From a virus, in the UHGV virus genome UHGV-1368192: a stretch of DNA of 64,000 nt; one strand, 5' to 3'. Positions 15,301-64,000 of this stretch are shown in pieces. The position numbers were made by a program, and so were the translations under genes. A model generated the notes under the pieces. The model made no database searches. It was not told the DNA's origin and was given only the letters and a program-made list of their open reading frames with translations. How positions within the stretch are numbered: position 1 is the first letter of the stretch; every line of letters starts with the position of its first letter.

Positions 15301-17128
15301 ACGTAGGTCTACCAAGGGTATGTCTACTGGTGGCAAGAAGAAGAGTAGTGGTAGCAATGCTGATAGGATTGTCAGGCTAGCTAAGGAAGAGAAGCACGTT
15401 GCGGCTCATGCTATCAAGACAGAGCCAACGCTTAGAGGTCTTGTCCTTGAGCTTGCAGCTAAGGGTGTCTCATCTGGCACGCCAATCTACTTCTCTGAGC
15501 ACACCATCAATGGCAAGACCTATGGCGGTGGTCATAAGGTTATCCTACAGGCTGAGGATGAACATGGCAATGTCCACAGTGTAGAGGTTGAGATCGACAA
15601 TGAGCTCGGTGCCAAGATGGACAAGATCGCAGAGGATGTGCGAGAGCTATCTGTCAAGAAGGTCTCCGAGGGGTTTGCTATGATCTCTGACGTGAAGATG
15701 AAGGATCTCAACAGGGATGTAATCACTGGCGAAGCAGATATCATCTTCCTCAGGAACGATGGAGAGAAGGGTGAGGGCATAGTCGCCGACATCAAGAGCA
15801 CTCTTATTGCGTCTGAGGACTCATCTCCAGCTGAGGCGATCCGAAGGAGCCAGCACGATGGTGTCTATGCTACAACTAAGTATAAGGCCCAGATTGATGG
15901 CTATGAGACGCATATCAAATCTCTCGGCTTCAAGATAGCTGAGCAAGGGTATGTTATTGCTGTCGGCTATGCTACAAGTAACGGCGCAACCGTTGTCGAG
16001 GCTATGTCTCTAGACGAAAAGGATCTTAACAGGCACAGGAAGACACTCAATCGCGGTACAAAAACTGGTCGTAATGGTCTTAACCCTAACGATGAGGTTG
16101 AGGCTGATCCTTACGAAGAGAGGGAAGCTCTTTTGCCATTTGAGCGTGGAGACGTATACAAGGAAGCTCACGATGTAGCTAAGCTCCTACCTCAGGGTCT
16201 GCTATACCAGGCTATCAGGATCCATCAAGGTATCGCTGAAGTGACTCCTGGTGTCTGGGGTAGGTACCGTAATGGCATTATCGAAGTTGCTAGTGGTGCG
16301 TCAGCTGGTACACTCTACCATGAGGCTATGCACTTCATCTATGAGAAGCTCCTAACGGACGCTGATAGGGGTATGCTAGTCTCAGGCTTGTCAGAGGTGA
16401 CTGAGGAACAGATCAGAGAGATCTTTGGCAACCAGATACCTATCGCCTACGCTCGTGATGTCAGAGAGCTCTCTGCCGAACTCTTCCGTCTGTGGATGCA
16501 GACTAAGGGCGACAAGAAGGCTCGTAAGGCTCTTGAGGAGAAGATTACTAAGCTAGCGCCTAAGAAGAAAGGCTTCTGGGGTCGATTGCAGGCCCTCTGG
16601 GAGCGTATCAAGGCAGCTCTGGGGTATACTCCCACATCGAGCGTCGTAAGCGTCCTGACGGGCATTGAGGGCGGTAACTACTCTCATGTGTCTGTAGCCT
16701 CAAGAGTGAACGCTACTAACCTCTCCTCACCTATGGAGGGCGTGGTAGAGTCAATGCTCAGGTACGGTCTTATGAGTGAGGAAGAGTTTAACTCTTCTTA
16801 TGATCCTTCCTCAATCATGGCCTCAAGGAATCTAGCTCAACTTATCCATAAGAAGCTCATGGAGCTTGCGTATGAAGCCCTGAGTGACCTCGAAGGCGAC
16901 AAGATCGAGACGAGCCACGCTGGTAGTATCAGGCGTAGAGAGGGCGATATTGACGATGCCATTGCTGTCCTTCGTGATGCAGCATCTACATCTGAGAAGG
17001 CTAAGCACACTGTTGAGATCATCGATGAGCTTGGTATCGATAGCCAGACCAAGACGGTCCAGGAGATGGATGCTCTTGAGGAAAGGACAGATAATCTCCT
17101 TGGTCAAACGCTTGCAGGCTGTAGGTAG
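9320..17128 (+). CDS. giant virion protein (2602 aa) with a C-terminal HExxH zincin-like motif
   Basis: 7.8 kb ORF with long E/K/A-rich coiled-coil stretches and PT-rich linkers. HEAMH lies within AGTLYHEAMHFIYEKLL near the C-terminus. The size is typical of crAss-like ejected giant proteins. Confidence 0.5.
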   Translation: MGRAKRKVFRPIFGKDLSSSAGRRSQEQVDNSFRAAQLQYEINAEKYRASAIRNLGESLEGLNEAEKQILIDKAIADIMPKEENPFADISSNPDAVGAIQADEERFKAGSQVDYGLLDKAEVWMNASMNKLLANATQSIKAGSDVIRGASDYFFSGNDVSPNYMLSEAVEREGKGALYNIFGAGNKYLAETAESADRAIHGAEASLASRGMDSGFWHAASDMVGQWGFTYGGMGTAALGRLAGGTFSVFGKIAKSASTATRWAKASEYTRKLFSAGSHLYGALSEAAVESYGVSKALEEAKGSQLAQLRSMMQKDFDQDFYSYERKYGAIKFSDFADNILTSSGMDPRLKREVANVLSGKSENASPNAIAAANAIVSQYKDQAEKAILQNASDEIDQRNGLASGWTAGLNTFILTFMNKYSYELATDKLAGANRLKKAGRFGVLGSTLINATSEGIEEVVQGGISKGAESLGKRAVDEMLRASTISERNSTSIGVLGSLGEIGKGVWDTTFSASPWVDEALPAIVSTLLIPMYKGSKMVGSRDMVNERTDAFGDPRGEKKSWLSKLYDSSPIGFAGVERYRDYKYSGGKQRTSDEAIEAMSKIIKGKHDDLTKEEKRVMTEVFGQNYAETVHETYQSVVDAMASADRMNTLLEKVAQSTSDSTDVAVAEELAKAHNVATMLSVIGNSSIGLANFNKRNFGQWTSDLMRSTREFGADMGHAISSLFGANTEEKEARYQAAVAKREADKAAREEARRSESDPFSEVPDNLRPFLNFLDVKETDEATLVSIARQRIENTLDSEERQKMQEAYFQGEGSDKLTEKAIKDIAGEINKQKHTLADIAVDYTNTMRYLDLGTKAGELSGREKSRIAAAAASFNHLRRLSLEHMDAFEEEVAGLYKEASQSLEKRITELIKDREDMRSNLNTDDEKRKSRLEDYIDQTNKAIEELEKQMRALEEAQKKYEESKKGDFSHALGGWDEFTQRFDSFSKLNEAHIDAAFMAGNDELGTKLAEMTLVDEKKSENGKLALSFARQAMQGVEALDKMLEGKNNTDILVARAAEEEKRQAEQDAADAVRNGEPKEDVDRALDSAESNGLEGDEVDVAKAAAAKAAEGEGSELSRYRSSVRNAIKNTLKGNEDFMGILRSFELDSDAIDKFIDDLISMVNDVVDVDPNGGYTDYKEAMTDALNLLTDRQNNPDLANQIFGLNNDDLISAVAEWIKGNIDEFPQDPTTPAQTLQGKPSKPNGERIVDSIEFDQATQHDIESASIGGVTVLNYSMSQRLQELFHGKNAIVNLLSKGSATINTSITFADGKATINVSISAGSETYEFSFSLGYDDLRNRLQMGVSLSTLIGDIVNTMVKVNERNIRKAFEAAGKDYAKKKNEAKKSAVGNQNSGEKNNEGRPSDTKPKVHEGPVPGSTEPTSPATDPTDDDGSKPSLPHTGRLTLWDQYNPGLNEANLTSLSEEWQEKIRKWYEEKNVGLNLKNAKGKEVFYGFAEELSENGDVSNSPIVVYVKDEQDQFVPIGLLPDHTTGNTQVLIDNIRAVATEDKKFDIFSSSDLNAPKAAISKVKYSPFKAKRVRGDKTIDAETIENGIEEELKRGQVAISVTAFPNGDNPPTIKSTTHDKDLDSETAEVIDAFIKEKESFLAQNYGQTYLVVLVNGKDGPKPTLVGIKGRDLIVDLVQGTAEDSEVSDLADEYMDKLTEEFKKAMETPDGEASGVYGEKYSSVFGSSFVYSVKPLRDADGNVTQVEITFPKRLNEGNIQSSAPVVVDIDLSSGDTIQALANAIVDAMKSSGKEKRRTAIAESIMGNKEKVEDVMTSGMRMTEVRDEAGFEALSEEKGGEEGNKTTPEPTTPPQGPEGTKTMPRVSTAAASNEGNGDGSFGSAGQDSLEKIKDDFAKNLVDKGYSVVVKSSTSPHIAAVDNGRIYMFEINPVDGTYNKVEWSAMHPTLKADAFALINSALSSDFKSSKNGRLLEYGEEMGGSTHTITVRRSTKGMSTGGKKKSSGSNADRIVRLAKEEKHVAAHAIKTEPTLRGLVLELAAKGVSSGTPIYFSEHTINGKTYGGGHKVILQAEDEHGNVHSVEVEIDNELGAKMDKIAEDVRELSVKKVSEGFAMISDVKMKDLNRDVITGEADIIFLRNDGEKGEGIVADIKSTLIASEDSSPAEAIRRSQHDGVYATTKYKAQIDGYETHIKSLGFKIAEQGYVIAVGYATSNGATVVEAMSLDEKDLNRHRKTLNRGTKTGRNGLNPNDEVEADPYEEREALLPFERGDVYKEAHDVAKLLPQGLLYQAIRIHQGIAEVTPGVWGRYRNGIIEVASGASAGTLYHEAMHFIYEKLLTDADRGMLVSGLSEVTEEQIREIFGNQIPIAYARDVRELSAELFRLWMQTKGDKKARKALEEKITKLAPKKKGFWGRLQALWERIKAALGYTPTSSVVSVLTGIEGGNYSHVSVASRVNATNLSSPMEGVVESMLRYGLMSEEEFNSSYDPSSIMASRNLAQLIHKKLMELAYEALSDLEGDKIETSHAGSIRRREGDIDDAIAVLRDAASTSEKAKHTVEIIDELGIDSQTKTVQEMDALEERTDNLLGQTLAGCR

Positions 17129-20200: not shown

Positions 20201-21959
20201 TCCCCATGTCTCGGATAATCTCATCCTTCAGAGCTGCTCTTGCAGCGCCTTCGGTTTCAAATAGCTTGTTGCCATAGCCATCCTTTGCATCCTTAAAGTA
20301 CTTGATGACCAGGTCTATTATGATCTCAGCCATCTTATCCTTGAGGTCGTACTTCTTTATAGATGCATCAATACTCGTCTTGTTATCCGAGATGTTCTTC
20401 CTGATTTTCTCTGTAAACGCTATCAGCCTAGCTCTCTCGCTATCAGACATCTGTATAGCCTCTGACCCCTCCGTCTTATTAAGCATCAATATGATGTCAT
20501 TGGCAAGTTCTTCGTTTTCCTCAAGATTCTTTGCCACCATATAGATGTTCCTGAGGAGAGAGGCAGAGACGTTATACGCAACAAGACTCTTATCACCATT
20601 CGTTAGGATGTTATCCACGTCCTTCATCTGGTCTACAACGGCAGACGCATAGTCGTTCATGATAGTCAGGCCCTCAATGAGGCTATCTATAGCGTCCACA
20701 GCGATAGCCGTGCCAAGGGCTGAGTTCACTCGACCTGATGCAACACCAAGCAGGTTTCGGGCTCCATCGATGTAATCGATCCTATCCTCGTCAAGGTTAG
20801 TCCTAAAGAGCTCGCCCTTCTTGACTGACTGACTGTAGAAGGCGTTGATCCTACTCTTTAGCTCCTCTGCGATCCTATTGATCCCAGCGATCTCATTCTT
20901 GATTCCTGTGCTGTTAGCGATGGCAGCATACAAGCTCCTACCCTTCACGATCTCAGAGAGGTGCTCATTAGAAAGCAGCGCCTTCTTGGCTACAATCTTA
21001 CTGGCATAATCCCTGAAGAGTCTGTCGGTGTGCTCTACCTCATTGAGGAAGACTCCGTCAGTGATGCCATGGAAGAGATCCTTGATAGCCTGCCAGATGC
21101 GGCTGAGGAAGGAATAGTGTTTTCCTTCGTACTGTCCGAGGATATGCTGAGTGAGGAGCTTGGCCATTGCCTCTCTCCTCAGAAGGTCCTGTGAGCCATC
21201 ATAGAGCTCGCTGTACGTCTCAAACTCCTTGCCTAGTATCTCCTTCACCTGGGCACTAGATATCGCGTTAGAGAGCCTCTCACGCAATGCTGGTGGTGCA
21301 AACTCCAACGCGATGTGTGCAAGCTCCTCGGTGAGGACCTCATTAGATGAGCCATTAGCCACGCGGATGAGTGCAGCCAGCTTATTGGTGGCTTGTGCGG
21401 TCTCGAGGAAGACGGTCTCGCCTGCCTGTCTCAGTCCTTCCTCAATGGCCTCGAAGTGCTCTACAGGAATGCCGTAGTGTTCAAGGAGCGCCATGATCCT
21501 ACCACGTAGGACAGCCTGCCTCTCAGCATCAGCCTTGGCTTCCCTATCCTCGGTATAGGACAACTTGTATCCTTCCTCAGTCACCTCAGGCACCAAGGGC
21601 GTACGCTCGGAGATAGGATCCTTGTTACCTTTCCTCACAGCCGCAAAGGCAGAATCGTAGGTCTCAAAGTGATTATCCTCGCCAGCATACGTACGGACCA
21701 TATAGGATCCGTACGAGCTAGCAGGGAACATATCCCCGACCGGGGTCAGGGCCAGGACATCTCGTCCTGACCACTGGCCTTGATCGTTTTTCTTTAGGTC
21801 ATGCCCATAGTCTTCAAACCACTTGCTGATGGATGCGTAGTAGGCATCTACTGTCGCGTTCCTATCTTGCAAGATGTCTCCAAGCTCCATGAACATCTTA
21901 CTTCTCTCTTTCCCACGCGGTGTCTCAACCGTTGGGTACATTACACATGACTTACTCAT
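17208..21959 (-). CDS. giant protein (1583 aa), putative virion or ejected protein
   Basis: 4.75 kb ORF on the minus strand. It overlaps the upstream giant gene by 4 nt. No recognisable catalytic motif. Confidence 0.5.
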   Translation of the reverse strand: MSKSCVMYPTVETPRGKERSKMFMELGDILQDRNATVDAYYASISKWFEDYGHDLKKNDQGQWSGRDVLALTPVGDMFPASSYGSYMVRTYAGEDNHFETYDSAFAAVRKGNKDPISERTPLVPEVTEEGYKLSYTEDREAKADAERQAVLRGRIMALLEHYGIPVEHFEAIEEGLRQAGETVFLETAQATNKLAALIRVANGSSNEVLTEELAHIALEFAPPALRERLSNAISSAQVKEILGKEFETYSELYDGSQDLLRREAMAKLLTQHILGQYEGKHYSFLSRIWQAIKDLFHGITDGVFLNEVEHTDRLFRDYASKIVAKKALLSNEHLSEIVKGRSLYAAIANSTGIKNEIAGINRIAEELKSRINAFYSQSVKKGELFRTNLDEDRIDYIDGARNLLGVASGRVNSALGTAIAVDAIDSLIEGLTIMNDYASAVVDQMKDVDNILTNGDKSLVAYNVSASLLRNIYMVAKNLEENEELANDIILMLNKTEGSEAIQMSDSERARLIAFTEKIRKNISDNKTSIDASIKKYDLKDKMAEIIIDLVIKYFKDAKDGYGNKLFETEGAARAALKDEIIRDMGKYSSKNNKFSAFLTPVATNGDLIHVLIARFIKATENRGNMAIMARSQATESKLTEIKEKHNLQNEDQWSLRRDKNGRITGEIVSPFKWLEFEAEKEKIAEKVEKGLNEKLAEYRRIHKANMDYESVHQERRGLEEYYKEEWEREHGSKLTEEYIVGQREDGSDIVETLPGDFFRNEEYYNLSDGQKEFVDALYDIKKDLDVWSGLKPEPWKLPLFARRGSSKELNPIKRVAAINWKQKILGGVIGIEEYEGVHTRDPLGTLLFVHKPKGYTQFGLELSKNPDVDYLTDPIGAMKNYAASSAYYTRMAAIRHIVELTRILDVENRGYHSRKNGVGRDKMADYDAYINRTIYEKNVINDERPDWDKRLDAAMDPFNDLVYVTGLGLNAVSGIKNLINGFLRATALGDSRTGYNATSLVKAILLAHREIPSRWKFNKRGIVEDPLTSLLFLMDSSHDGREAFMQGNVSQVRSLMSLFSTETLMAPLTMGDEWMKTSFAIAYLLNVEAGELNPEAKEKFKGKSLYDYMKDLKAPEGVRMTKFVEDSLIAFSGAKNREEMYNWLGGHSQRLLLGTQRTLGAYNDNDRAAANSYAIGRAVLTFRNWMPVIISDMFRGTRYNAQNQEFEEGAYTTLWKMMHVKGEDGKDSISAMHALGTAAVAMFVPFMISKTLRGAVQKKFHLSDMQANNLHRLGRSALIVHAMRALTDTLYVAMLTMGFADDDDDEPWYETLAQLALHFLTSLTPLLGPYAVKLGLIHTDLYDRMRRNYARYNEAADKSTSQQLETAKRFLNKQMKDISLGIIADLYGLASAGSNELHPGDPIAFAMAMVQNNMFGAGAGVKKMDFGQSIESMATSGVAGYKTMMSLFSGIGDTYNRIVNNSQEGKKKANPTEWENENRYIEESDDSFIVKAWRRYKNDMENGSPADRTFWNVFVVGIIGRNMFNIPFVGDSFREKQMKDIKKYQPTYLTPLPDNFFMKYNNLAGDAVLDYGVFHRDSDDDE

Positions 21960-24900
21960 TGTCTACATGCATTATTATTCTCTTCTGTTTGAGTCTTCTC
22001 AACCTCTGCTATCACGCCAAAGAGCGGAGAGTATGATACGGCTTCTGAATGAGCCTTGGCCTTGAGTGGTCCGGACTGCTCTATCAACCCATTCTCAGCC
22101 AGGCGAACGAGATTCAGCTTCTCAGGCTGCGCTCTCTGGAGCGAAGGTAATAGATAGTCTCCGTCCATCCTATAGTCGTTGTACAGCGTTCCATCCTCGG
22201 TCACGATACCCCTTGGGTCGATCCTGGTGTAGACCGTGTCCCCTGCGTAGGCTCTACTGTCTATGCCCTGGACGTAGATGATGCCACGGTTGGGCTGATC
22301 CTTATCTGCGATGACATAGACAGGATCCCTCTTCTCACTTGTCACCATGATATAGTCAGGAGCGATACCGCCTGTGGTCTCCAGTAGTGCGACAGCGTCT
22401 TGCTGTGGCACAACACGGCCAATCTTCCTGATGTTCTCCCTGACGTAGTTCTGCATGAACTGATGAGTGAACTCAGTATCTAGCTCCTGTCCAGCCCTCA
22501 GCTCAAGGGCATCGAACTTGATCCTCTCAAGCATCGCGTTGCGCCCCATCATAAGAGCCTTCACTGACTGAGGTATAGCCTGTAGCATAGCCTTCATGTT
22601 CGGATTACCACTCATGTAGGTTGCGTACAGAGCTAAGCCCTTGAGGAGCTCATAGTCCCTAAGAGCCTTTGCACGCTCTACACCGGTCAGTCGAGTGTTG
22701 TGCGCCTGCTCGATGATATCCTCAAAGGCAGCTGTAGCCTTCGCCATGGCCTTCTCCTCACTCGGAGTACCAAGACTCTTGAAGACCAACGACTGGAACG
22801 TCCTCTTCTTCCATTGCTTGTCGATGAGGACAGGTACGATGTTCTCCTTGCCGAGACCTACTATCTTCTTCAGGGACTCTGGTGCAGTCCTATTGAAAAT
22901 GTCTGGGAACTTGGTGATAATCTCCTGCGCCAGGACATTCTTCTTTTCCTCATCCTCAGAGTAGGTAGTGATAGCTGAGCTTACGTACTGATCGTATGCA
23001 GAGAGGAACTTCTTAGTAAAGTCCATCGTAGGCTTTACACCGAGTCTCCTAGCCGTCTCTACGATAGAGAGGGCAAACATAGGTGATACCTTAGGGTTGT
23101 AGACAGACTCTGCATACATCGTTCCGAAAAGACCAAGGCCCAGATACATCCTGTAGAAGTGCCCATCCTTGTTCTGCTCGATGAAGGTCTTAGTGGTAGC
23201 ATTAGGACTGAGCCCTGGCAGAGTCCTCAGTGGTACGATGATACCCTCATGCCTGATATACCTGTGATTCTGCGCGCGCTCGATCTGGTCGATAGACTTG
23301 ACCATAGCGAAGACAGACTCATTGACACCACCCTTAGGTCCGCTTGAGGAGACATCAGACTTGCTCTGGAAGACAAGGTCCTTGATCTCTGATGCAGCAT
23401 TCACCACGTCTATGAGGAGGTCAGCAACACGCTTGACGGACTCCTTCGTTCTTAGATCCAACTTATTGAATGCCTCTACTACCTTGTCGTCAGTAGCATT
23501 GAGAGCCTCCTTGATGAGATCCTGGGTCTCGAACTTAGAACATTCTATAAGGTCCTCCATAGACACGTCTACAGATCTATTGCTTTTAACCTCACCGCCC
23601 TGAGCTAGCGCCTTGAAGAGAGCCTGTGATCGTCCCTCATCACCCTCGAGGTTGGCAATGTGCTTCCACAGAGGTGTGGCAGTGATAAGACCAATGATGC
23701 TCCCTGGCACACCCATCCTCACCATAGTGGCGATGATAGACGCATTATCCATAGTGATGTCAGCAAGACCGATCACAGGGTCCTTAGCGTTATCCACAGA
23801 TGCAGCGCTGTACTCCTCAAGGATACGAGAGACATACGTCTTGTCGTCGCCTATCATTCCATTGAGTGACTGATATGTTGCGCCAGCGATCTTAATGGGT
23901 TTCTCCAGCTCGAGGAGCTGTGCCTGCTGGAAGACGCTCGTAGCGGTGTTCTCATTAGCGAATACACCTACGAGACCGAGACCAGCCTTGTTCTGTCTCT
24001 GCATCTCCATCTCCACCTCAGACAGGGCGATGTTCTTGCCTGACCTAAAGATATCTACGATCTCATTGATCTTGTCGAGGTCGAGGTTATGCAGGTATTC
24101 AAAGATGACCTTGTCACCGATCTTCTTGTCAGCCTTGTCGTCAAGGACCTGCTCAAGGATCTCCTCAAGCCTCTCCTTGCTTATCTTACTGATGATGTAG
24201 CCAATCTTCAGGTCCTTCTTCACACCATCATAACCGCCAGGCTGTGCCATCTCTAAGGCCGCCTGTGGGCTCCTCAGAACGCCTCTGATGATGTCAAAGA
24301 GTACGTTGGTTCTCTGCCTTTGGTTGAGATCCCTGGTGTTGACACCGCCATTCTTGAAGACTTCTGCAGCTGAGTAGTTGATGTCAAGAACTGCGGGCCT
24401 CTTAGGCATCTTCTTGTCACCTCTGATCTGAGCCTGACGCACCTTCTCATCATAGTCCTTCTTGATTTCAGCGATCTTCTTTTTGCCAGGACCAACATCC
24501 TTCTTCATAAAGAAGAGCTTGTCGACGTCGAAGTCAAAGCCCGCCTGAGCAATACACTCATGAGGAACCTGGATAACACCACCGGCAACACGAGGCAGGA
24601 AGCCCACGATACGGAGAGGGAAGGCTGAGTACTTAGACTCGGTAGGAATACGATAAGCTACAAGCTCAAGGAGATCCTCTCTACCATCCTTCTCAATCTT
24701 CTTGACATCGATCTCTCCCTTCTCATTAGCGTACTCAAGGATCTCGCTAGAGTGTGGCGTGACACGTACAGGTACGTAGTCGATGGACCCATCCTCCTTG
24801 TACTGAACCTTCAGGTCGTTAGACGCTTCAGCTGAGCTCATCTGGATGAGTGATCCCCCAGGGACCATCATCTTATAGATCTTCTTCGCTGCCATCGCGT

Positions 24901-27900
24901 AGAAGGCAGAGTGCAGAGCATCCTGGAACGAAGGATCGTAGATGTCGTTCGTGAAGTGCTTACGTCCGTACTCGTCTACGTGAACCTCAAGGTAGTCCTC
25001 GCTAGATGGATCGTAATAGTCACTATCCATAAGTGCATCAAGTATCTTTCTCCTCAGACGATCGAAGCGCTTGTTGTAGCTCTTGACACTCTTCTTGCTG
25101 ATACCCTCGCTGTCAGGGTTCATCTCGATACCTGACTTGATGAACTCATCGATAGCGTGCTGACCTACGATCTCATTGATGGCTGCCTTGATCTGATAGC
25201 CAGACACCTCTACTCCGGCGATCTCAAAGGTATCCAGGTTATTGAGGTTGGTCGTGATGATCTTCCTCAGCTGTGTACCAAGCCTCTGCCACGTGTTGAA
25301 AGAGTGAAGGGGCGTTGAGGTCTGGATACCATAGTACTTATACGGCATGTCCTTGACCTTCTTTTCGTCAAGTTTGATACGACCATTCTCATCTCTATCC
25401 ACTATGTGTCTCTTCCTACCATCGATCTCCACCTCTGTGCTAGACTCTACTAGCTGCGCGGTGATAAAGTCAGAGATATCATCAGTCATGATCTTTGAGA
25501 ACTCAGCCCTGTACTTCTCTACCTCTTCCTCAGACAGCTCCTTCTTCTTTACGTAGTCTGCCATATTCTCATCGAACTCCTCAAGACTAGCAGCTGTGAT
25601 GGTCCTCTTCTTGCCGTTGTTGACCTCGAACGTGTACTTGATAGGAGCGATATTATCCAGGCTGAGGTCTACGGTAGCATAGTTACCTACCTTAGATGCA
25701 CTATTATACTCAATAGCGTCGATCTGGTTATCCTCCATGAACTTCACAAGCGCATTGAGGAAAGGAGAAGATACCCCTTCCTCATTAAGTCCAGTGAGGA
25801 GAGCCTCAGAGTGCTTGTACTGCTGAATGACCTTGGTATCCCTATCACCGTCCTTGACATGGATGTCGCCGTAGTACAGGCTCTTGATGACATTAAAGCG
25901 GTGGTCCTTGATCTTGGCGTAGTCAGGCTCACGACCTTCCTTGATAGCATTAGCCATCTCCTCAAGAGCTTCGATAGCTCCATCAGTATAACCCTGCCCT
26001 GAACCCTCAAGGATACGCTTGTAGCCTGAAGGTGACAGCCAAGCCTGTCCGTCGGTAGCTGTGATCTCGCTATAGGCCTTGAGTGAAGCGTCATAGCCAG
26101 CCTTGGTGATAAGCCCAAGCTCTTTCTTCTTATCGAGGATAGCCTTGATCTCCTTGGTTAGCCTATCAGCCATACGGTCATTGATGACGACAGTACGCCT
26201 TACAGCGTTCTTCTCCATGTCAAGCCTCTGGGTATTACTCTGCGCCTGCTTAGCACGCTTGACCTCATTGACCATACTACCAAGTACAGCCTTATCACCA
26301 TAGAGCAGATGTCCGATCTGGATCCTCCAGAACACACCATTGAAGGCAAGTGCATATTGCTCCATTGCTTCACCCTTATGGTCAAGGGCAAACTCATCCC
26401 ATGACTGTACCTCATTCTGAACCTCCTGATTGAACTGTATCTCTACCTCATTCCTCAGGACCTCCTCTAGTTTAGTGAGGTCCGTGTTACGAGCTCTGTT
26501 ATACGCGTGGATGAATTTCACCCTGTCGAGATCCGAGAGGTTCTTGTCAATCATGGCACTCATGATGTTGTACTCGATACCCTCGACCTTCGCTGTGAAG
26601 TCATTGAGCCCAGGTAGCGATACGAACCTATGAGCCATGCTATCCCTCTTACCGATCTTCATAGCCTTCTCCTTGCCAAAGAGCACGTGCTGAGCTCTCC
26701 TGGCTTCATTGTAGGCAAGCATGGTGAGGTGGTTTATAGCGAACTCTCTGTCGACCTTCCTCTTGTTTTCATCCTCCTTCATAGGATCGAGTCTCCTCAC
26801 CTTGACGAACTCAAGGGTGGATGCTTCTGCGGCTACAGGTAGGTGAGCCCAGTAGTAGGCGTTGTCCTTATCCCTCTGAGAGTCGTAGTAGAGGTTAGCA
26901 AGCTCATTGCTATTCCACTTGTTCATCTTGCGACCATTGTGCACAACGACTCTCTTCCTTGAGAATAACCCTGACACAAAGCTCTTCGCAACGTAAGCGT
27001 CATTGAGGAAGGCGTTAGCTGTATGATACTTGCCCTGTATTCCCTCTAACGCAACCTGATTCCTGTAGATCTCATCCTTGTCAAGATACTCGCGCCGTAT
27101 TGTATCTACGATCTTAGGATGCCTGTTGTTGCCCCTAAACTGTAGCTCCTGGAACGCCATATCACGATATGACGGTGCGAGGCTTGATGCAAAGAGGAGA
27201 CCCTCTACGCTTGTTCCAGTAGTGTCATAGCTCAATACTCCTGTGTAGAATACTGCGCTAATCTTTGATAGGCTACTATAGACGTATGAGAAGTCTGAAC
27301 CCCTCGTGAAGTCTATTGGCGACTTCAGCGTGAACTTCTTGCCGTCACCCATCTGAGCGGCAAGCTTTCTCAGGTTCTTTGCGTAGTCAGCTATTGAGAA
27401 TCTCAGCATGGTGAGGATGTCGTGACGTGATCCCGAAAGATTCCTATCCCCTGTTGGAGGCACAGTGCTTGCTGAATTGTTGTACCCTCTCGTTGTCTGT
27501 GCTGCCTTAGTCCATTCGATAGACAGCATCCTTGGCTCAACAAATATCCCAAACTTCTGCAGCAACTTAGACACGCGCTCCTGTAGCTGAATGAGTCTTT
27601 CGGCTTCAGTCAGCTTCATTTCAAGTCCACTGTCCATGCTGAAGTCCAGACCGACCAGGTCTATCATAGATTGGTCTATCTCTGTGGCGATCTTGTCTAT
27701 CTCCTCAACCGACAGTGTTAGACCATCTACACCAAAGGCTTCTGTGAACTTGCTTGCCCACTTACTGATGACATCAAGATTTGATGACCTATCCGCCATG
27801 AACACAAATCCCTGGCTATCTCTGACAGCGTACTTTATCCTGATCTTGTTTATCGCAGAGAACAGCTGTGATGCCATAGCCCTCATCCTCTTGCGCTTCT

Positions 27901-29827
27901 GGATGGACTCTTCGTTCCTGTAGTCAATGTAAGGGCGCAGCTGCTTTATCCATGGCTCTACGGTCTCCATAACTTCAAGACGCTCAAGCATGTCCTCGCT
28001 GTTCTCAATGCCCTCCATAAGAGAGGCAAGGGTATTGTAGGTCTCACCAAGTGACTTGAACTTAGTGTACCCGAACGAGTCGGTGATAGGCTTGCCGTCA
28101 AGATCCACATCCTCGATGACTGAGAATAGAGCCCTTACCGCTGGGGTGATAGTCGACATTACTGACTTCTCCTCAGCCTCAAGGAACCTGACATCCTCTC
28201 CAGCATCTCCTTCCTCAGAACTCCCTGTCTCCTCAGAGTCTTCTGCCTGGTCTCCTTCCTCATCGAAGAGGTCGTCAAAGAGATTACCCTCATATAGGTC
28301 GTCATCTCCGTCTTCTTCCTCATCAGCATCTTTGAGCTCCTCAGCCTCGCTGATCTTCTCAAGAGCTATGGTAGAGCCAAGTATCGATCTTGCGACCTTG
28401 TTGGTGGCAAGGTGGAACATCCTCTCATCCTTATCGATATTCGTCTCGATATTCTTTAGGGTGTCCCTCTCACTCATCACGAAGCCATAGGATGCCGCTA
28501 CGGCCTCTATAATAGCATCACGCTGCTTTGATATCTCTGGGTCGTTCTGAAGCCGTACAGCCTTGATGATAGCCTCGTCAAGGGCTGTCCTGTCGAGGAG
28601 CCCATTAGGATCCTCACTAAATACCAAGTACGTCTTGAGTGCCTCAGCAAAGATTTCCTTGTCCTCAAGCCCTACGTTCCTCAGTGCCCTATCAATGATG
28701 ACATCCTTAGCCATCTTATCAGCCTTGTCTATGCGATTGCTGATAGCGGCCTTGGTTAGAGCGTATAGAGTCTCCTTAGATTCCTTGCTCTTGAAGTCAT
28801 GTAGGAACCCACCATCTTCCTTGAGGAGAGAAGAGACAACGCCCTTGACAACATCTGTAAGGACTCTCTGTTCCCTTCTGTTCTTCCTGCTCTCTATAGC
28901 TCGTGCGGAAGCGTCTGCGTTCTGTCGGTAGCCAAGGACCGATGCGTCATGAAGAACCCTGACACCCTTATCCACCATATTCTTAGCTTCTGTCGCTATA
29001 AGGCTATAGATCGTTGAGTCTACTACACCCATGGCGTTTCGCTCGGCTACAGATAGCATCCTGATCTCTCCGTTACCAGCCAAGCTATGAAGCACATCGA
29101 TGACCGACATCTTAGCCTTCATGGCTTCGTTGACCATATTAGTAGAGACATCGACAAACTCTTCCTTGATCCTTGCTACAGCGTCATCGCTAAGCCTCGT
29201 CTTGCCGTCTCCGTTCTTGATAAGCTCATTGAGCACAGCGCCGGTATCGACGCTCCCATCTGACTTACGGTAGTCCTTGAAGCCCGACTGAATGATCTTG
29301 GCAACTCGCTCGATGTTCTTCTCAAGGTCACTCCTATCCAGGGCGTATCTCGCGCGCTTCTTGTAAACATTGTCAAGGATACGAACGAGGATAGCCGAGT
29401 TGAGATCGTTGATCTTACCTATAGCGTCCTGCGTCAGGAACTCATAGGCGTTGTTCTCCAATGCGTTCTGGATATAGAGTGGCACGTAAGACATGACAGC
29501 CTTGTACCCATCAGTCTCCTGGATGGGTCGACCATCAGGCTTCATCTTTCCGATCTTATCCAGTACTGCATCAACCTCCTCATTATTCTTGATAAGCTCC
29601 TGGAACTTGCGCTCAAGGATACGGATCGTGCTCTTCTTAGTAAGCTGATCGTTAGTAAACTCGTACCCTTGCGTCATCTCGGTATAAGCAATAAGCGCCT
29701 GGACCTTTTCTACTTTGTCGGCCAGGTGCTTGATTGGACTCATACCTTCTTGCCCTTCATACTCGGACTCGTTGATCAACTTCTTGATCTCCTCGTATGT
29801 CTCGGGGCTCAGTATTCTACAATGCAT
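21956..29827 (-). CDS. giant protein (2623 aa), candidate virion-packaged RNA polymerase
   Basis: 7.9 kb ORF. It contains AQAGFDFDVDKLFF, reminiscent of the DFDGD metal-binding loop of two-barrel RNA polymerases. Its size and context match crAss-like giant RNAP genes. Confidence 0.4.
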   Translation of the reverse strand: MHCRILSPETYEEIKKLINESEYEGQEGMSPIKHLADKVEKVQALIAYTEMTQGYEFTNDQLTKKSTIRILERKFQELIKNNEEVDAVLDKIGKMKPDGRPIQETDGYKAVMSYVPLYIQNALENNAYEFLTQDAIGKINDLNSAILVRILDNVYKKRARYALDRSDLEKNIERVAKIIQSGFKDYRKSDGSVDTGAVLNELIKNGDGKTRLSDDAVARIKEEFVDVSTNMVNEAMKAKMSVIDVLHSLAGNGEIRMLSVAERNAMGVVDSTIYSLIATEAKNMVDKGVRVLHDASVLGYRQNADASARAIESRKNRREQRVLTDVVKGVVSSLLKEDGGFLHDFKSKESKETLYALTKAAISNRIDKADKMAKDVIIDRALRNVGLEDKEIFAEALKTYLVFSEDPNGLLDRTALDEAIIKAVRLQNDPEISKQRDAIIEAVAASYGFVMSERDTLKNIETNIDKDERMFHLATNKVARSILGSTIALEKISEAEELKDADEEEDGDDDLYEGNLFDDLFDEEGDQAEDSEETGSSEEGDAGEDVRFLEAEEKSVMSTITPAVRALFSVIEDVDLDGKPITDSFGYTKFKSLGETYNTLASLMEGIENSEDMLERLEVMETVEPWIKQLRPYIDYRNEESIQKRKRMRAMASQLFSAINKIRIKYAVRDSQGFVFMADRSSNLDVISKWASKFTEAFGVDGLTLSVEEIDKIATEIDQSMIDLVGLDFSMDSGLEMKLTEAERLIQLQERVSKLLQKFGIFVEPRMLSIEWTKAAQTTRGYNNSASTVPPTGDRNLSGSRHDILTMLRFSIADYAKNLRKLAAQMGDGKKFTLKSPIDFTRGSDFSYVYSSLSKISAVFYTGVLSYDTTGTSVEGLLFASSLAPSYRDMAFQELQFRGNNRHPKIVDTIRREYLDKDEIYRNQVALEGIQGKYHTANAFLNDAYVAKSFVSGLFSRKRVVVHNGRKMNKWNSNELANLYYDSQRDKDNAYYWAHLPVAAEASTLEFVKVRRLDPMKEDENKRKVDREFAINHLTMLAYNEARRAQHVLFGKEKAMKIGKRDSMAHRFVSLPGLNDFTAKVEGIEYNIMSAMIDKNLSDLDRVKFIHAYNRARNTDLTKLEEVLRNEVEIQFNQEVQNEVQSWDEFALDHKGEAMEQYALAFNGVFWRIQIGHLLYGDKAVLGSMVNEVKRAKQAQSNTQRLDMEKNAVRRTVVINDRMADRLTKEIKAILDKKKELGLITKAGYDASLKAYSEITATDGQAWLSPSGYKRILEGSGQGYTDGAIEALEEMANAIKEGREPDYAKIKDHRFNVIKSLYYGDIHVKDGDRDTKVIQQYKHSEALLTGLNEEGVSSPFLNALVKFMEDNQIDAIEYNSASKVGNYATVDLSLDNIAPIKYTFEVNNGKKRTITAASLEEFDENMADYVKKKELSEEEVEKYRAEFSKIMTDDISDFITAQLVESSTEVEIDGRKRHIVDRDENGRIKLDEKKVKDMPYKYYGIQTSTPLHSFNTWQRLGTQLRKIITTNLNNLDTFEIAGVEVSGYQIKAAINEIVGQHAIDEFIKSGIEMNPDSEGISKKSVKSYNKRFDRLRRKILDALMDSDYYDPSSEDYLEVHVDEYGRKHFTNDIYDPSFQDALHSAFYAMAAKKIYKMMVPGGSLIQMSSAEASNDLKVQYKEDGSIDYVPVRVTPHSSEILEYANEKGEIDVKKIEKDGREDLLELVAYRIPTESKYSAFPLRIVGFLPRVAGGVIQVPHECIAQAGFDFDVDKLFFMKKDVGPGKKKIAEIKKDYDEKVRQAQIRGDKKMPKRPAVLDINYSAAEVFKNGGVNTRDLNQRQRTNVLFDIIRGVLRSPQAALEMAQPGGYDGVKKDLKIGYIISKISKERLEEILEQVLDDKADKKIGDKVIFEYLHNLDLDKINEIVDIFRSGKNIALSEVEMEMQRQNKAGLGLVGVFANENTATSVFQQAQLLELEKPIKIAGATYQSLNGMIGDDKTYVSRILEEYSAASVDNAKDPVIGLADITMDNASIIATMVRMGVPGSIIGLITATPLWKHIANLEGDEGRSQALFKALAQGGEVKSNRSVDVSMEDLIECSKFETQDLIKEALNATDDKVVEAFNKLDLRTKESVKRVADLLIDVVNAASEIKDLVFQSKSDVSSSGPKGGVNESVFAMVKSIDQIERAQNHRYIRHEGIIVPLRTLPGLSPNATTKTFIEQNKDGHFYRMYLGLGLFGTMYAESVYNPKVSPMFALSIVETARRLGVKPTMDFTKKFLSAYDQYVSSAITTYSEDEEKKNVLAQEIITKFPDIFNRTAPESLKKIVGLGKENIVPVLIDKQWKKRTFQSLVFKSLGTPSEEKAMAKATAAFEDIIEQAHNTRLTGVERAKALRDYELLKGLALYATYMSGNPNMKAMLQAIPQSVKALMMGRNAMLERIKFDALELRAGQELDTEFTHQFMQNYVRENIRKIGRVVPQQDAVALLETTGGIAPDYIMVTSEKRDPVYVIADKDQPNRGIIYVQGIDSRAYAGDTVYTRIDPRGIVTEDGTLYNDYRMDGDYLLPSLQRAQPEKLNLVRLAENGLIEQSGPLKAKAHSEAVSYSPLFGVIAEVEKTQTEENNNACRQ

Positions 29828-49139: not shown

Positions 49140-49188
49140 ATTTCCTGTGGTTTATAAATGAGAATAGCCGACCTCATGGCCGGCTGTG

Positions 49189-49260
49189 TACCCCGAGATG
49201 GAATCGAACCATCATCGTAAGTTTAGGAAACTTATGTTCTATCCGTTGAACTATCGGGGC
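49189..49260 (-). tRNA. tRNA-Arg (anticodon CCT)
   Basis: The minus strand reads GCCCCGA-TA-GTTC-AACGGATA-GAAC-A-TAAGT-TTCCTAA-ACTTA-CGAT-GATGG-TTCGATT-CCATC-TCGGGGT-A. This gives a complete cloverleaf of 72 nt. The GGTTCGATTCC T-arm is present. No CCA is encoded. Confidence 0.8.
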
Positions 49261-57722: not shown

Positions 57723-58127
57723 TTACGGCTTCAAATCTCCTCCCTGGACACTTGTACTACCGAGAGATTCTGCGGCCTCCTGAAGCTGTTCTACGCTTCT
57801 GGCCATAAAGAGGAGCTTTGATGAGGTGGTACCTGCGCTGTCGGTGACGAGGTAAAGACCGAAATAACTCTCGGCTTCCTCATTAGCATCGATGGCGTAT
57901 AGGACCTTATGGATGGGCGTGTCCTTGAGGAAGGTGATAAGACCAGGCTCGAAGTCTGTGTACTTTTTACCTTCATCTACCTGCCACAAGAGTGATGTCT
58001 CCGTCTTCTTCTCTTCTTCAAGCGTTCTTATGGCGAGTGCAGCCGCCCATATCACTAGTCCTATGAGGAAGAAGATGATTATGAATCTGAGTACTTCTTT
58101 CATTGTGCTTATACTAATAAAGCCCAC
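57723..58127 (-). CDS. membrane-anchored protein (N-terminal transmembrane helix, 134 aa)
   Basis: N-terminus LRFIIIFFLIGLVIWAAALAI. Confidence 0.45.
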   Translation of the reverse strand: MGFISISTMKEVLRFIIIFFLIGLVIWAAALAIRTLEEEKKTETSLLWQVDEGKKYTDFEPGLITFLKDTPIHKVLYAIDANEEAESYFGLYLVTDSAGTTSSKLLFMARSVEQLQEAAESLGSTSVQGGDLKP

Positions 58128-58158
58128 ACCACCGTGTTAGGGCGATGTGGGCGTACTG

Positions 58159-61340: not shown

Positions 61341-61368
61341 CAAAAAAGACCTCCCTAAGGAGGTCTTT
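61341..61368 (-). terminator. rho-independent terminator (minus strand)
   Basis: Read on the minus strand: AGACCTCC ttag GGAGGTCT followed by TTTTTTG. It lies directly downstream of the stop of 61374..61676. Confidence 0.75.
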
Positions 61369-61686: not shown

Positions 61687-62184
61687 CTATAAGAAGTTCA
61701 TCTTGTAGCGTGGGTCAGCCTCGTAGTTGCCGATGAACAGGTTGTACCCGGCAGGCTGATTGTCTACGATGCGCATCTGGAGGTTCACGTGGAACACCTG
61801 ACCTGTCTGCTGCGTAAGGGCGATAGCATCCTCGAAGACCTGAGGGCCTTCCTTGGTGCCATTAACCCATACAGCGGTAGGCTTGCCATCTACGCTGATG
61901 AAGGCCTGCTGGCGGTCGCCATACTGAGTCTTCATCACAAACGTACTGAGCACGCCGAGCTTCTTGAGGTCAGCCATCTGCGTAAGCTCTACGGACTTAG
62001 CCGTAACCGTATATGCGCGTGGGCGCTCTACTACGGTCTCAACAGCCTCCTCAAAAGGATTGACTGGAGTAGCTTCAGTAGCTTCAACGCCGTCTACGTG
62101 CATACCCTGAACTTCGGCGTTGTTAAGTTCAGTTGCGATGTTGTTCTGTGCAGCTTCAGCTGCGATCTTCGTCTTGCGAGCCAT
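61687..62184 (-). CDS. hypothetical protein (165 aa; start revised to MARKTKIAAE..)
   Basis: The track ORF extends to 62412 through a 66 % GC region, giving an R/P-rich junk N-terminus. The ATG at 62184 starts the compositionally normal part. Confidence 0.5.
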   Translation of the reverse strand: MARKTKIAAEAAQNNIATELNNAEVQGMHVDGVEATEATPVNPFEEAVETVVERPRAYTVTAKSVELTQMADLKKLGVLSTFVMKTQYGDRQQAFISVDGKPTAVWVNGTKEGPQVFEDAIALTQQTGQVFHVNLQMRIVDNQPAGYNLFIGNYEADPRYKMNFL

Positions 62185-62205
62185 AATTCTTATTCGCGTT
62201 AGAAG

Positions 62206-62527
62206 TGATGCTCCCTTCCCACCGTGGGTCGGGTAGCGGCGGTCCTTAGAGCGGACCACACTTGGTGAACCGGAGTCAACCGGCGGTACCTGCAGTTCCG
62301 TGCAGGCGGTAGAGACGTGGCGATGCTTCGCACCGGCAATGTAGAGGCCGGGAGGATGGCGAAGGCGGAGCCACGGACGGCAGAAAGCCCCGACAAGGGA
62401 TATCCCCCGCAAGCGGCAGGGCTACCAGCCGGAGGTCGCCAGCCGGAGGAACACCCGCCAGGGTGCAGGCGTAAGCCCACAACCCTGACAAGGGATATCC
62501 CCCGACGTTCGGCCGAAGGCCGCAGGG
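62206..62527. repeat. GC-rich (about 66 %) non-coding island with internal direct repeats
   Basis: The 18 nt repeat GACAAGGGATATCCCCCG occurs at 62392-62409 and 62488-62505. The tandem CCAGCCGGAGG occurs at 62425-62435 and 62439-62449. Short hairpins are GGTCC..GGACC and CGGCC gaa GGCCG. The island is flanked by GTTAGAAG at 62198-62205 and 62528-62535. Confidence 0.5.
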
Positions 62528-62528
62528 G

Positions 62529-63110
62529 TTAGAAGATGCGGCTGGCCTGACGGTAGAGGTACAGGCGAGCACACAGGAGAGGGTCGGAGATGCCGACGTA
62601 GTAACAGACGGAGACAACAACACGTAGTGCCTTGGCTTCGGCTCTTGTGCTATAGTCGTCCGACTTCCTCAGCTCATCCAGGGCTATAGCACCATTGCGT
62701 AGGAGACTCTCCTTGCCGTGGTAGGGAGCCGTCACGAAGATGCTGTTCAGCCACAGAGCGCCGCTCTCTTTCTTGCTTATGCGTAAGATGAGGTGTGCGA
62801 TAGCACCACCCATCAGGACGTAGAAGGAGGGAAGAGAGCTTGCTACCTTCCTCAGGTACCCATACTTGCGTACGCGATTGTCGAGGATGTCACGCAAGAG
62901 CGTAGCTTTCTTCTGGCTGGGCTGTGCCCACTTAATGATTAGACATAGGACGAACTGTAGGATGCGTGCCTTGCTCATCAGCTTGACGATGGCTTCGTAA
63001 GCAAGGCGGTAGTTAGTTACTGCGCTATCCTTGGTGCCGGCATTGTGGATGGCCGTGTTAGCGAGGTTGATGATAGCGGTGATCTCGTTGTTGACGTTGA
63101 TAGTATTCAT
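62529..63110 (-). CDS. hypothetical protein (193 aa)
   Basis: ORF. Its stop codon lies within the right copy of the 8 bp repeat. Confidence 0.5.
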   Translation of the reverse strand: MNTINVNNEITAIINLANTAIHNAGTKDSAVTNYRLAYEAIVKLMSKARILQFVLCLIIKWAQPSQKKATLLRDILDNRVRKYGYLRKVASSLPSFYVLMGGAIAHLILRISKKESGALWLNSIFVTAPYHGKESLLRNGAIALDELRKSDDYSTRAEAKALRVVVSVCYYVGISDPLLCARLYLYRQASRIF

Positions 63111-63194: not shown

Positions 63195-63611
63195 TTAGAA
63201 GGGGAGAACGTGAGGATCTTGAGGTCTTACAGGATTTGGATCAAGGCTAGCACAGAAGACTATATGATCATCTATCTCTTCCTCAGGAGAATACGCATAA
63301 GACATCTCAATCTCCTGATCAATCTCAAAGTTCTCGATATCCACACTTATTAGAGCGGCATAGATAGCTCGATAATCATCCTCTGTGGCATATTCGACAA
63401 TGGCATCATATAGAGCCTTGTCCCGAACTTTAGCACAACACAGGACAATAGCCTTCACTGTGCCCATATACCCACTCGGACAGCCAATCATATCATCAGC
63501 ATCAGCAACATAGCTGTAGGCGTATATCTTACACGCCAGCTGATAATAATTATCAAAGCTAAGGTTAGACAGAAGGACGGACGATTCACGGAGGGTCTTG
63601 ATTGCTTCCAT
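63195..63611 (-). CDS. hypothetical acidic protein (138 aa)
   Basis: ORF only. Confidence 0.5.
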   Translation of the reverse strand: MEAIKTLRESSVLLSNLSFDNYYQLACKIYAYSYVADADDMIGCPSGYMGTVKAIVLCCAKVRDKALYDAIVEYATEDDYRAIYAALISVDIENFEIDQEIEMSYAYSPEEEIDDHIVFCASLDPNPVRPQDPHVLPF

Positions 63612-64000
63612 TGTAGTAAGGTGTTAGGAAGTGAAACAATAATGAACACCACCCCAACCGGGATGGTGTACGACAGAACAATAAGGCAACAACAGCTAAG
63701 TATAGCCGTAGCATCAGCACAGATATACACCCGCAGAAAGGCAGAAAGGCGGAGAAAGAGTCCAGCCCCTACCCCACGTCTTCCCATTAGGGCCGTCATC
63801 ACAACAGCTATTCTGGGTGTTGTTGTCTTGATCACACGGATTGCCGTGCGCAGAGAGGGTGTATTATCTCCTGAGGAAAGGAGAGGTCGTACTACACCCT
63901 TGATATGGAGCTGGGCTATACCCCTTGCTGAGCTGCACTGTGGACTTGGTGTCCTTGATGCTTGTACCCTGGCCAGCGTCCTGCACTGGTGAAGTGTACA

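Follow-up and report, generated by a model that had tools for sequence, protein, structure and literature searches.

Repeated boxes in a non-coding island of a crAss-like phage vary with its virion RNA polymerase and are candidate signals for this enzyme

Introduction

What does a short, GC-rich stretch of DNA with direct repeats do among the small genes of a crAss-like phage? The island in question occupies positions 62186-62528 on the minus strand of UHGV virus genome UHGV-1368192, of which a stretch of 64,000 nucleotides (nt) was analyzed (hereafter "the window"), and fills the gap between the stop codon of a gene for a protein of 193 amino acids (aa) and the start codon of a gene for a protein of 165 aa. 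It lies within a long leftward array of small genes, upstream of the replication genes. Judged by its sequence, the window is from a deeply divergent crAss-like phage, with a helicase ~35% identical to those of the uncultured crAss-like phages cr111_1 and cr128_1. To our knowledge, all crAss-like phages inject a giant RNA polymerase, and the recognition target of this enzyme on the phage genome is not known. Here, we report that the island is non-coding and conserved and interpret it as a control and leader region within the early operon; its repeated boxes may be the first recognizable signals, probably promoters, for the phage's injected RNA polymerase. A preliminary description of the locus, made by a model from the letters of the window, had pointed out the island; the third copy of the box and the link to the polymerase were invisible to it.

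A conserved non-coding island at a fixed position

The preliminary description had put the GC content of the island at about two-thirds, and the fraction measured for 62221-62520 is indeed 0.667, with 0.65-0.67 for the whole island and a window mean of 0.486. When the 64 kilobases (kb) were scanned in 150-nt segments, the island was the sole place with a GC content of at least 0.60 (maximum 0.687; standard deviation 0.041). The coding DNA directly flanking it was estimated too low at roughly 45%, the measured values being about 0.51-0.56. Several stop-free frames run through the island. As suspected before, these open frames are artefacts of GC richness and not coding, since relatives differ by frame-breaking indels of 1, 14 and about 15-17 nt. 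For the conserved 3' part of the island, the 3' domain, the same follows from variable positions without a third-codon bias (tally 11/9/7) and from a 1-nt deletion in two relatives (L002 and L052), which disrupts the frame of the downstream gene. The possibility that related phages carry the same sequence with ordinary coding potential did not materialize: it sits at the same place in all of them, yet is non-coding.

The island was found in every related contig covering the site (18 distinct sequences that include the second box and the 3' domain), and none of these contigs showed an empty site. Homologues of the flanking genes and of the invariant core occur in only one group of ~90-kb phage contigs from IMG/VR and metagenomes. 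Neither the island nor the 4 kb surrounding it matched any GenBank phage in BLAST searches. The exact core was recovered from the same 13 contigs in IMG/VR, from 10 more contigs of the same phage group in metagenomes (plus chance matches), and from 185,579 bacterial species genomes only as six 19-mer matches, which are due to chance and lack extended similarity. The island is single-copy and confined to this phage group.

This distribution bears on two earlier suggestions, insertion of a small mobile element, for which the 8-mer GTTAGAAG would be the target-site duplication, and capture of foreign DNA from a host. A GC content sharply unlike that of the surroundings would fit a recent origin of this kind, and the 8-bp direct repeat was confirmed at both borders (62198-62205 and 62528-62535); the nominal chance of an 8-mer common to two 50-nt border windows is ~0.016, with borders that were picked after the fact. 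However, the left copy varies among relatives (CTTCTAAC, CTTCAAAA, CTTATAAT and TCTTTAAT, in RNA sense), and the right copy is simply where the 193-aa gene ends, with its last codons and stop. A variable flanking 8-mer and the lack of an empty site show that the island is not a mobile insertion with a target-site duplication; no terminal inverted repeats were found at it either. Capture from a host, as well as a wider distribution, is rejected because the core searches yielded the same phage group and otherwise chance matches. Altogether, we regard an origin as a mobile or captured element as effectively refuted.

Read in RNA sense along the minus strand, the island is divided into a hypervariable 5' module and the 3' domain (Table 1). 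Based on mean pairwise identity over 12 genomes, the 3' domain reaches 0.97 in its three best 50-nt windows, equal to the best-conserved coding DNA nearby, and the 5' module, at 0.58-0.81, is the most variable segment of the region. The least conserved part (identity 0.58) is formed by CCUCCGG units, of which there are one (L008), two (the window and L010) or three (L004-6, L011-12, L054 and L057). On the plus strand, these units contain the 11-mer CCAGCCGGAGG described before as a tandem; both copies exist (62425-62435 and 62439-62449, period 14 nt), but 3 nt separate them. A natural deletion in L009 / L019 (IMGVR_UViG_3300006321_000014) removes the 193-aa gene, the first hairpin (hairpin A) and the first box, and fuses the 3' end of a 115-aa gene to the CCUCCGG repeat, leaving the second box and the 3' domain intact.

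Contig ends of six relatives (L003, L004, L014, L035, L044 and L058) fall in or beside the island. The assemblies are independent, and their breaks may stem from a 5' module that is hypervariable between strains, from GC-rich DNA being poorly covered, or from real genome ends.

Three co-oriented boxes with exchangeable cassettes

The most prominent repeat of the island had been described as an 18-mer occurring twice, 96 bp apart, with a palindromic core. The repeat is real and longer, 22 nt (62388-62409 and 62483-62504), with 95% identity and a start-to-start distance of 95 nt; with up to 3 mismatches allowed, the window holds 2 matches and 100 shuffles hold 0. Comparison among the relatives delimits it to a box of 21 nt, composed of a variable cassette of ~8-10 nt and a conserved half, CCCUUGUC-RGGG, which can fold into a mini-hairpin (CCCUUGUCRGGG) of 4 bp with U-A, C-G or U.G as closing pair among copies and types. 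The palindrome GGGAUAUCCC is present in the window and is confined to one cassette type.

Each genome has three boxes in the same orientation, two in the island, spaced by 95-110 nt among genomes, and one 2.0-2.4 kb upstream. For the window, homology places this third box where the early operon begins, ~2.2 kb upstream and ~100-250 nt past position 64000; in relatives it was seen directly (L036:4080-4300, L028, L031, L033, L035 and L059). No further copy was found in the 64-kb window or in the 12-kb loci of relatives. The third box lies in a conserved non-coding leader of ~600 nt, about 100 nt after an A/T-rich tract, and its flanks are conserved, so that the cassette alone differs.

Six cassette types were distinguished: A (GGGGGAUAUCCC), B (GGAAAUCAUCCC), C (GGGGAUCAYUCC), D (UCUAACCAASCCC), E (AUGUUAUUCCC) and F (UUAUAARCCC). 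Examples of type C are contigs ODJA01000065.1 and QWCO01000026.1. Within any one genome, all copies are of the same type; the three co-oriented copies evolve in concert. In one relative, L170 (IMGVR_UViG_3300008406_000095), a type-A cassette stands within an E-like upstream flank, which indicates that the cassette is exchangeable as an independent unit. In the third box, the cassette stays unpaired within a loop that an 8-bp stem closes, a context unlike that of box 1. Since the larger structural contexts differ, what the copies share is the box sequence itself. A complementary partner co-varying with the cassettes, as in a riboswitch-like or antisense model, was not found within ~6 kb on either side, and the leader of the third box had no match in Rfam.

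Box type follows the virion RNA polymerase

The virion RNA polymerase of the window is recognized by the motif GFDFDVD, the DFDxD signature of crAss-type virion RNA polymerases, and homologues with ~25% identity are found in many crAss-like contigs. Two-barrel virion polymerases of the crAss type are relatives of the polymerases of RNA interference. We analyzed the relationship between boxes and polymerase in 12 related genomes representing five box types (no polymerase could be linked to type C). Polymerases of type A and B genomes are 88-97% identical to that of the window, and those of types D, E and F 71-73%; within the D/E/F clade, identity is 98% for E-E, 100% for F-F, 88% for D-F, and 79-80% for E-D and E-F.

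Mantel tests were used to compare box type, taken as a category or as cassette edit distance, with pairwise protein distance. For the full-length polymerase, r was 0.66 (category) and 0.88 (edit distance), with p <= 1e-4; for polymerase residues 696-830, it rose to 0.76 and 0.95. In this segment, the types are completely separated, the largest same-type distance being 0.104 and the smallest different-type distance 0.127. The genes for the helicase and for the 514-aa, 193-aa, 165-aa and 100-aa proteins were not significant (r -0.12 to -0.02 and -0.24 to 0.00, respectively), nor was the gene ending 67 nt upstream of the polymerase gene (r ~0 both ways); the N-terminus of the overlapping 1,583-aa gene was partly associated (r 0.50 and 0.72). 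The DnaB-like helicase, for example, is 91-93% identical in all A, D, E and F genomes except close relatives of the window (98-99%), with r -0.12. Likewise, a comparison of 14 neighbouring early genes revealed none that tracks the boxes, in a strongly mosaic region. Among the genes tested, the one with a statistical link to box type is the polymerase gene.

Within the polymerase, 3 of 130 sliding windows of 60 aa, all in 696-830, separate the five types, including A from B within their close clade, compared to 0 of 131 windows of a second giant protein of 2,602 aa. The type-specific sequence is located at residues 723-731 and 797-812. Here, LVGLD[FV]S-MD together with DILTML marks type A in 5/5 genomes, which span two subclades (88-97% identical), and L[IV]NL[ND]SH-RD together with DILYML marks type B in 2/2 genomes that are ~95% identical to the window overall. 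A prediction from the polymerase was borne out, as the genome 240_70 is of type F; it counts as weak, its polymerase being identical to that of another type-F genome.

Hypervariable segments of the polymerase comprise residues 399-498, 696-990, 1088-1180 and 1377-1475, with identities down to ~50% between clades, and the catalytic core (residues about 1476-2073) is 81-95% identical. A phmmer search of the polymerase against PDB gave no match, hence residues 696-830 are unplaced on the structure of gp66. The second giant open reading frame (9320-17128, plus strand) has a DFDxD-like KDFDQDF at residue 315; its product may belong to the polymerase module or be a further protein ejected from the virion.

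Folding and covariation of the island

Compared with shuffled sequences, the whole island folds more stably on the minus strand (z -3.66) than on the plus strand (z -0.25); for the 3' domain alone, the values are -1.77 and +0.25. The hairpin part of the 5' module, consisting of hairpin A and the long hairpin around box 1, was examined in 15 distinct 5' modules. Here, 96.9% of the cells are paired, in contrast to 31-49% when the partners are slid, and three pairs show compensatory change. Eight cells are changed on both sides, a number reached by 0 of 500 shuffles. For example, the pair at columns 10-18 of hairpin A changes from G-C to A-U in three distinct sequences, with one A.C intermediate. 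About 23% of these cells are G.U by tally, and these would become A.C mismatches on the plus strand; the long-hairpin structure is therefore specific to the minus strand. Hairpin A has only Watson-Crick pairs, so either strand could form it. These results show that box 1 sits in a covarying hairpin of the minus strand and that the hairpin part of the 5' module is a structure of RNA or of single-stranded minus-strand DNA.

The 3' domain behaves differently. Substitutions in its stems keep the pair in about 4 cases and break predicted pairs in about 9, and the sole true compensatory change is a G-C to A-U in P3. Since substitutions mostly break pairs, conservation of the domain concerns its sequence, and the fold is no more than predicted. 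Among the functions proposed in the preliminary description, a structured 5' leader or non-coding RNA (ncRNA) comes closest: strand-specific folding and hairpin covariation agree with it, and the fold of the 3' domain is the part left unproven. Rfam 15 gave no match to the island at the gathering score (permissive matches all had E > 5), and ARAGORN found no transfer RNA (tRNA) or transfer-messenger RNA in it.

Two further pairings were considered and rejected. A long-range pairing of box 2 with P5 (CCCGAC...AAGGG) would leave the box 2 changes in types B, D, E and F uncompensated in an invariant P5, and the long hairpin between box 1 and box 2 in the minimum free energy fold of the window needs the palindrome GGGAUAUCCC, which types B to F lack.

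Table 1 Positions in the window of the island elements, flanking genes, operon-leader hairpin and polymerase gene; island sequences in RNA sense
Feature	Position	Strand	Remarks
Hypervariable 5' module	62391-62528	-	
Hairpin A	62510-62522	-	CGGCC-UUC-GGCCG; 5-bp stem, 3-nt loop; directly after the stop codon, upstream of box 1
Box 1	62483-62503	-	Cassette GGGGGAUAU and conserved CCCUUGUCAGGG
Long hairpin	62454-62494	-	Conserved half of box 1 paired with downstream CCCUGGCGGG (CCCUGGCRGGG); encloses the inner hairpin UGUGGGC-UUAC-GCCUGCA
Two 14-nt CCUCCGG units	62422-62449	-	CCUCCGGCUGGNNN (CCAGCCGGAGG on the plus strand)
Box 2	62388-62408	-	GGGGGAUAU and CCCUUGUCGGGG; adjoins the 3' domain on its upstream side
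Conserved 3' domain	62210-62390	-	~180 nt; five predicted hairpins
P1 (predicted)	62317-62374	-	
P2 (predicted)	62288-62307	-	
P3 (predicted)	62269-62284	-	
P4 (predicted)	62240-62258	-	
P5 (predicted)	62210-62237	-	
165-aa gene	61687-62184	-	MARKTK...; downstream of the island; start codon ~25 nt from the 3' domain
193-aa gene	62529-63110	-	Upstream of the island; stop codon carries the right GTTAGAAG
Terminator-like hairpin	63646-63669	-	10-bp stem, 6 G-C pairs, tail TCATTATTGT; in the ~600-nt operon leader
Virion RNA polymerase gene	21956-29827	-	2,623 aa; GFDFDVD at residue 1765

Boxes as candidate signals for the virion polymerase

With a rough probability of 0.45, we tentatively read the boxes from their sequence pattern as cis signals for the virion polymerase, early promoters being the likeliest kind, with a structured leader after them. 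We rank this reading first because the copies are co-oriented, with a lineage-specific 5' half and a conserved 3' half, and because they co-vary with the polymerase. All boxes lie on the strand of the early genes, one heading the operon and two preceding the 165-aa gene, and across the related genomes their cassette type varies together with the virion polymerase. The polymerase packaged in the virion and injected with the DNA would transcribe the early genes from the boxes. Its residues ~696-830 would read the variable cassette as a specificity element, and the conserved half ending in RGGG would serve as initiation region. The transcript driven by box 2 would open with the ~180-nt leader (62210-62390), which is invariant and rich in GC, and run on into the 165-aa gene, while box 1, the surrounding hairpins and the CCUCCGG repeats would be a dispensable, fast-evolving upstream module; the L009 deletion, which keeps box 2 and the 3' domain without box 1, speaks in favour of this. 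Polymerase binding, a promoter role as opposed to action at the RNA level, the start sites and the role of the 3' domain are all what we infer from this pattern.

Promoters of the T7, T3 and SP6 type have a variable 5' half and a conserved 3' half, and N4 has three hairpin-containing early promoters for its injected virion polymerase. Similar to promoters of phage polymerases, the boxes are few, short and co-oriented motifs heading early units, co-vary with a polymerase segment and have a 3' half that ends in a purine/G run. As in N4, there are three copies, accompanied by small hairpins, in ~2.5 kb close to where the early region starts. In contrast to T7 and N4, the polymerase here is a single-chain two-barrel enzyme of the crAss type, unrelated to theirs. 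The hairpin promoter of N4 is formed by the template strand (5-7 bp stem, 3-nt loop), whereas wobble pairs here favour the non-template strand or RNA, the G.U pairs of the box mini-hairpin and of the long hairpin being A.C mismatches on the template strand. For the two-barrel virion polymerase of P23-45, a conserved motif was found at 14 start sites (10.1101/2022.12.01.518664); that motif is AT-rich, unlike the GC-rich box described here.

Several points weigh against a promoter role. It rests on a correlation over 12 genomes and five box types, and the p-values of the Mantel tests overstate independence, the genomes being related. The association tests covered part of the gene complement. In addition, the deep split between A/B and D/E/F is shared by the neighbouring gene for the 2,602-aa protein and partly by the 1,583-aa gene; at this level, a block of ~20 kb co-segregates with the boxes and any of its genes could be the partner. 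The margins in the decisive polymerase windows are also thin (0.16 vs 0.18). The G.U-rich hairpin of box 1 and the mini-hairpin with its frequent U.G pair fit RNA or the non-template strand. The third box may itself lie inside a transcript, with the A/T tract ~100 nt upstream and conserved flanks on both sides. Leaders of about 215 and 480 nt, as implied here, are very long for phage promoters. Finally, no common upstream motif was found for the early transcripts of phi14:2 (10.1101/2020.03.07.982082).

If confirmed, the box would be the first promoter or recognition signal of a crAss-type virion polymerase, with its specificity determinant located, and it would help to explain the strongly mosaic early region. 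The lineage provides a testable candidate, a 21-nt box with a swappable cassette and a matching hypervariable segment in the polymerase, and the allelic pairs found in nature (types A, B, D, E and F) are in effect swap experiments already made. According to one description (10.1101/2020.03.07.982082), the crAss-like phages include the most abundant human gut virus.

Alternative readings

The main rival, possible but on balance unlikely, is that the boxes act in RNA, as antitermination, pausing or processing signals of the nascent transcript, read by the virion polymerase or a partner protein. One long early transcript would then start from the A/T tract upstream of the third box, and the island would reload the signal before the 165-aa gene, in analogy to the nut sites of lambda and the put sites of HK022. 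Strand-specific folding would be expected in this case, and so would the covarying hairpin of box 1 with its many G.U pairs and the U-A, C-G and U.G variation of the mini-hairpin over copies and types. The third box, ~100 nt past the A/T tract in the conserved 600-nt leader and in its loop closed by an 8-bp stem, has the terminator-like hairpin 63646-63669 downstream, and the link to the polymerase would fit a direct RNA-polymerase contact of the put type. Similar to lambda nutL/nutR, which act with N, and HK022 putL/putR, there are few copies in early-operon leaders, a hairpin is combined with a single-stranded element, and the sequence is lineage-specific and co-varies with a trans partner (N, or the polymerase itself). 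However, the three boxes stand in different structural contexts, where only the fold of the 12-nt mini-hairpin is conserved, and no promoter was identified in the A/T tract. Downstream of the island there are no clear terminators, the first terminator-like site being at 61345-61368. Sequence, structure and Rfam reveal nothing nut- or put-like; with reference to boxA/boxB the arrangement is reversed, the hairpin being conserved and the flanking element variable, and the two-stem architecture of put is missing. If the boxes do act in RNA, they would represent a new kind of polymerase-RNA control.

The island could also encode a stable early ncRNA acting in trans, for example by sequestering or mimicking a host factor, with the boxes as processing or protein-binding sites, which we consider improbable. 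Its appeal lies in a 3' domain that is non-coding and 97% conserved, in the GC richness within a genome of 49% GC, and in several predicted hairpins. There is a precedent in phi14:2, where highly expressed, persistent ncRNAs come from the early region: two abundant, unexplained long non-coding RNAs (lncRNAs) between g004 and g005 and between g005 and g006 (Drobysheva et al., 10.1101/2020.03.07.982082). Both phages have long, co-oriented non-coding stretches among crAss-like early genes, in a region transcribed by the virion polymerase. However, the phi14:2 lncRNAs show no similarity to the island in sequence, repeats or composition (L060 2905-4601 shares no repeats and has a GC content of 0.18-0.35 in a background of ~0.28), and no repeated box was reported there. 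Besides the missing homology to this region and to Rfam, the substitution pattern leaves the fold of the 3' domain unsupported, its z-score is only -1.77, and no terminator or 3' end signal is present in the ~25 nt between the domain and the start codon of the 165-aa gene. A combination of the two ideas, in which cassette and mini-hairpin in the nascent RNA would reprogram or recruit the virion polymerase (put-like, but factor-free, and particular to each phage lineage) and the invariant, GC-rich ~180-nt domain would be an abundant early ncRNA like the phi14:2 lncRNAs, appears unlikely rather than improbable; if true, it would be a new class of polymerase-RNA control system in Crassvirales. 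Quite improbable, in our view, is a role of the boxes as lineage-specific double-stranded DNA sites of a phage protein, such as operators, origin iterons, or a packaging or ejection signal. The preliminary description had listed an iteron cluster, origin or packaging site, and the repeats do behave like recognition sites: short direct repeats of ~20 nt evolve in concert within a genome, as those of operator-repressor and iteron-initiator pairs typically do. In DNA, CCCY...RGGG also forms a dyad, many assemblies break in or beside the island, and the cumulative GC skew has a minimum near 61-62 kb. However, the skew mainly follows gene orientation, and the island offers just two copies at an irregular spacing in 66% GC DNA, without an AT-rich unwinding element. 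The boxes track the polymerase, not the replicative helicase or any adjacent early gene, and no initiator gene was identified. The pairing is strand-specific, and both the G.U-rich hairpin and the T.G that replaces T-A or C-G in the dyad favour a single-stranded minus-strand form. A better iteron-like array (four copies of CCTCAACCA and an A/T tract) is located in the divergent upstream non-coding region.

Neighbouring genes and further observations

This array was seen in a relative (L036:3800-4070) as four direct repeats of CCTCAACCA(A/G)AATAC followed by the A/T-rich tract, ~150-350 nt upstream of the third box. The ~2 kb of non-coding DNA around it separate two divergent gene blocks, and the array is a better candidate than the island for an iteron-type origin, a promoter region or a genome terminus. 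Simple scans for sigma-70 promoters gave nothing relevant; such scans do not cover promoters of Bacteroidota or of phage polymerases.

The terminator-like hairpin of the operon leader lies between the third box and the first early gene. Two more terminator-like hairpins with T-rich tails, on the same strand at 61345-61368 (after the 100-aa gene) and 58122-58152, may be ends of early transcription units. The first early gene itself (63195-63611, minus strand) is very mosaic; the copy of the window encodes 138 aa and that of L036 (L036:4645-5505) 286 aa, with an identity of 34-49% in most relatives and 95% in L005. On the opposite strand, an open reading frame (63621-63992, plus strand; L036:4399-4998 on the minus strand) overlaps the operon leader and includes a hydrophobic stretch, AVITTAILGVVVLITRIA, which is similar in the relative. 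It is either a gene for a small membrane protein or a by-product of nucleotide conservation.

Neither the 165-aa nor the 193-aa protein had an informative match in Pfam or PHROGs. For the 165-aa protein, only six close clusters were found, and the only distant matches among 1.84 billion proteins were P0007 (1,152 aa, 8 stretches) and P0008 (2,447 aa, 11 stretches), which suggests a shared repeat-type domain. Its AlphaFold model, with a predicted local distance difference test score (pLDDT) of 35, is unusable. Elsewhere in the window, a tRNA-Arg gene (anticodon CCU) is located at 49188-49260 on the minus strand, scoring 67.6 bits against the Rfam tRNA model.

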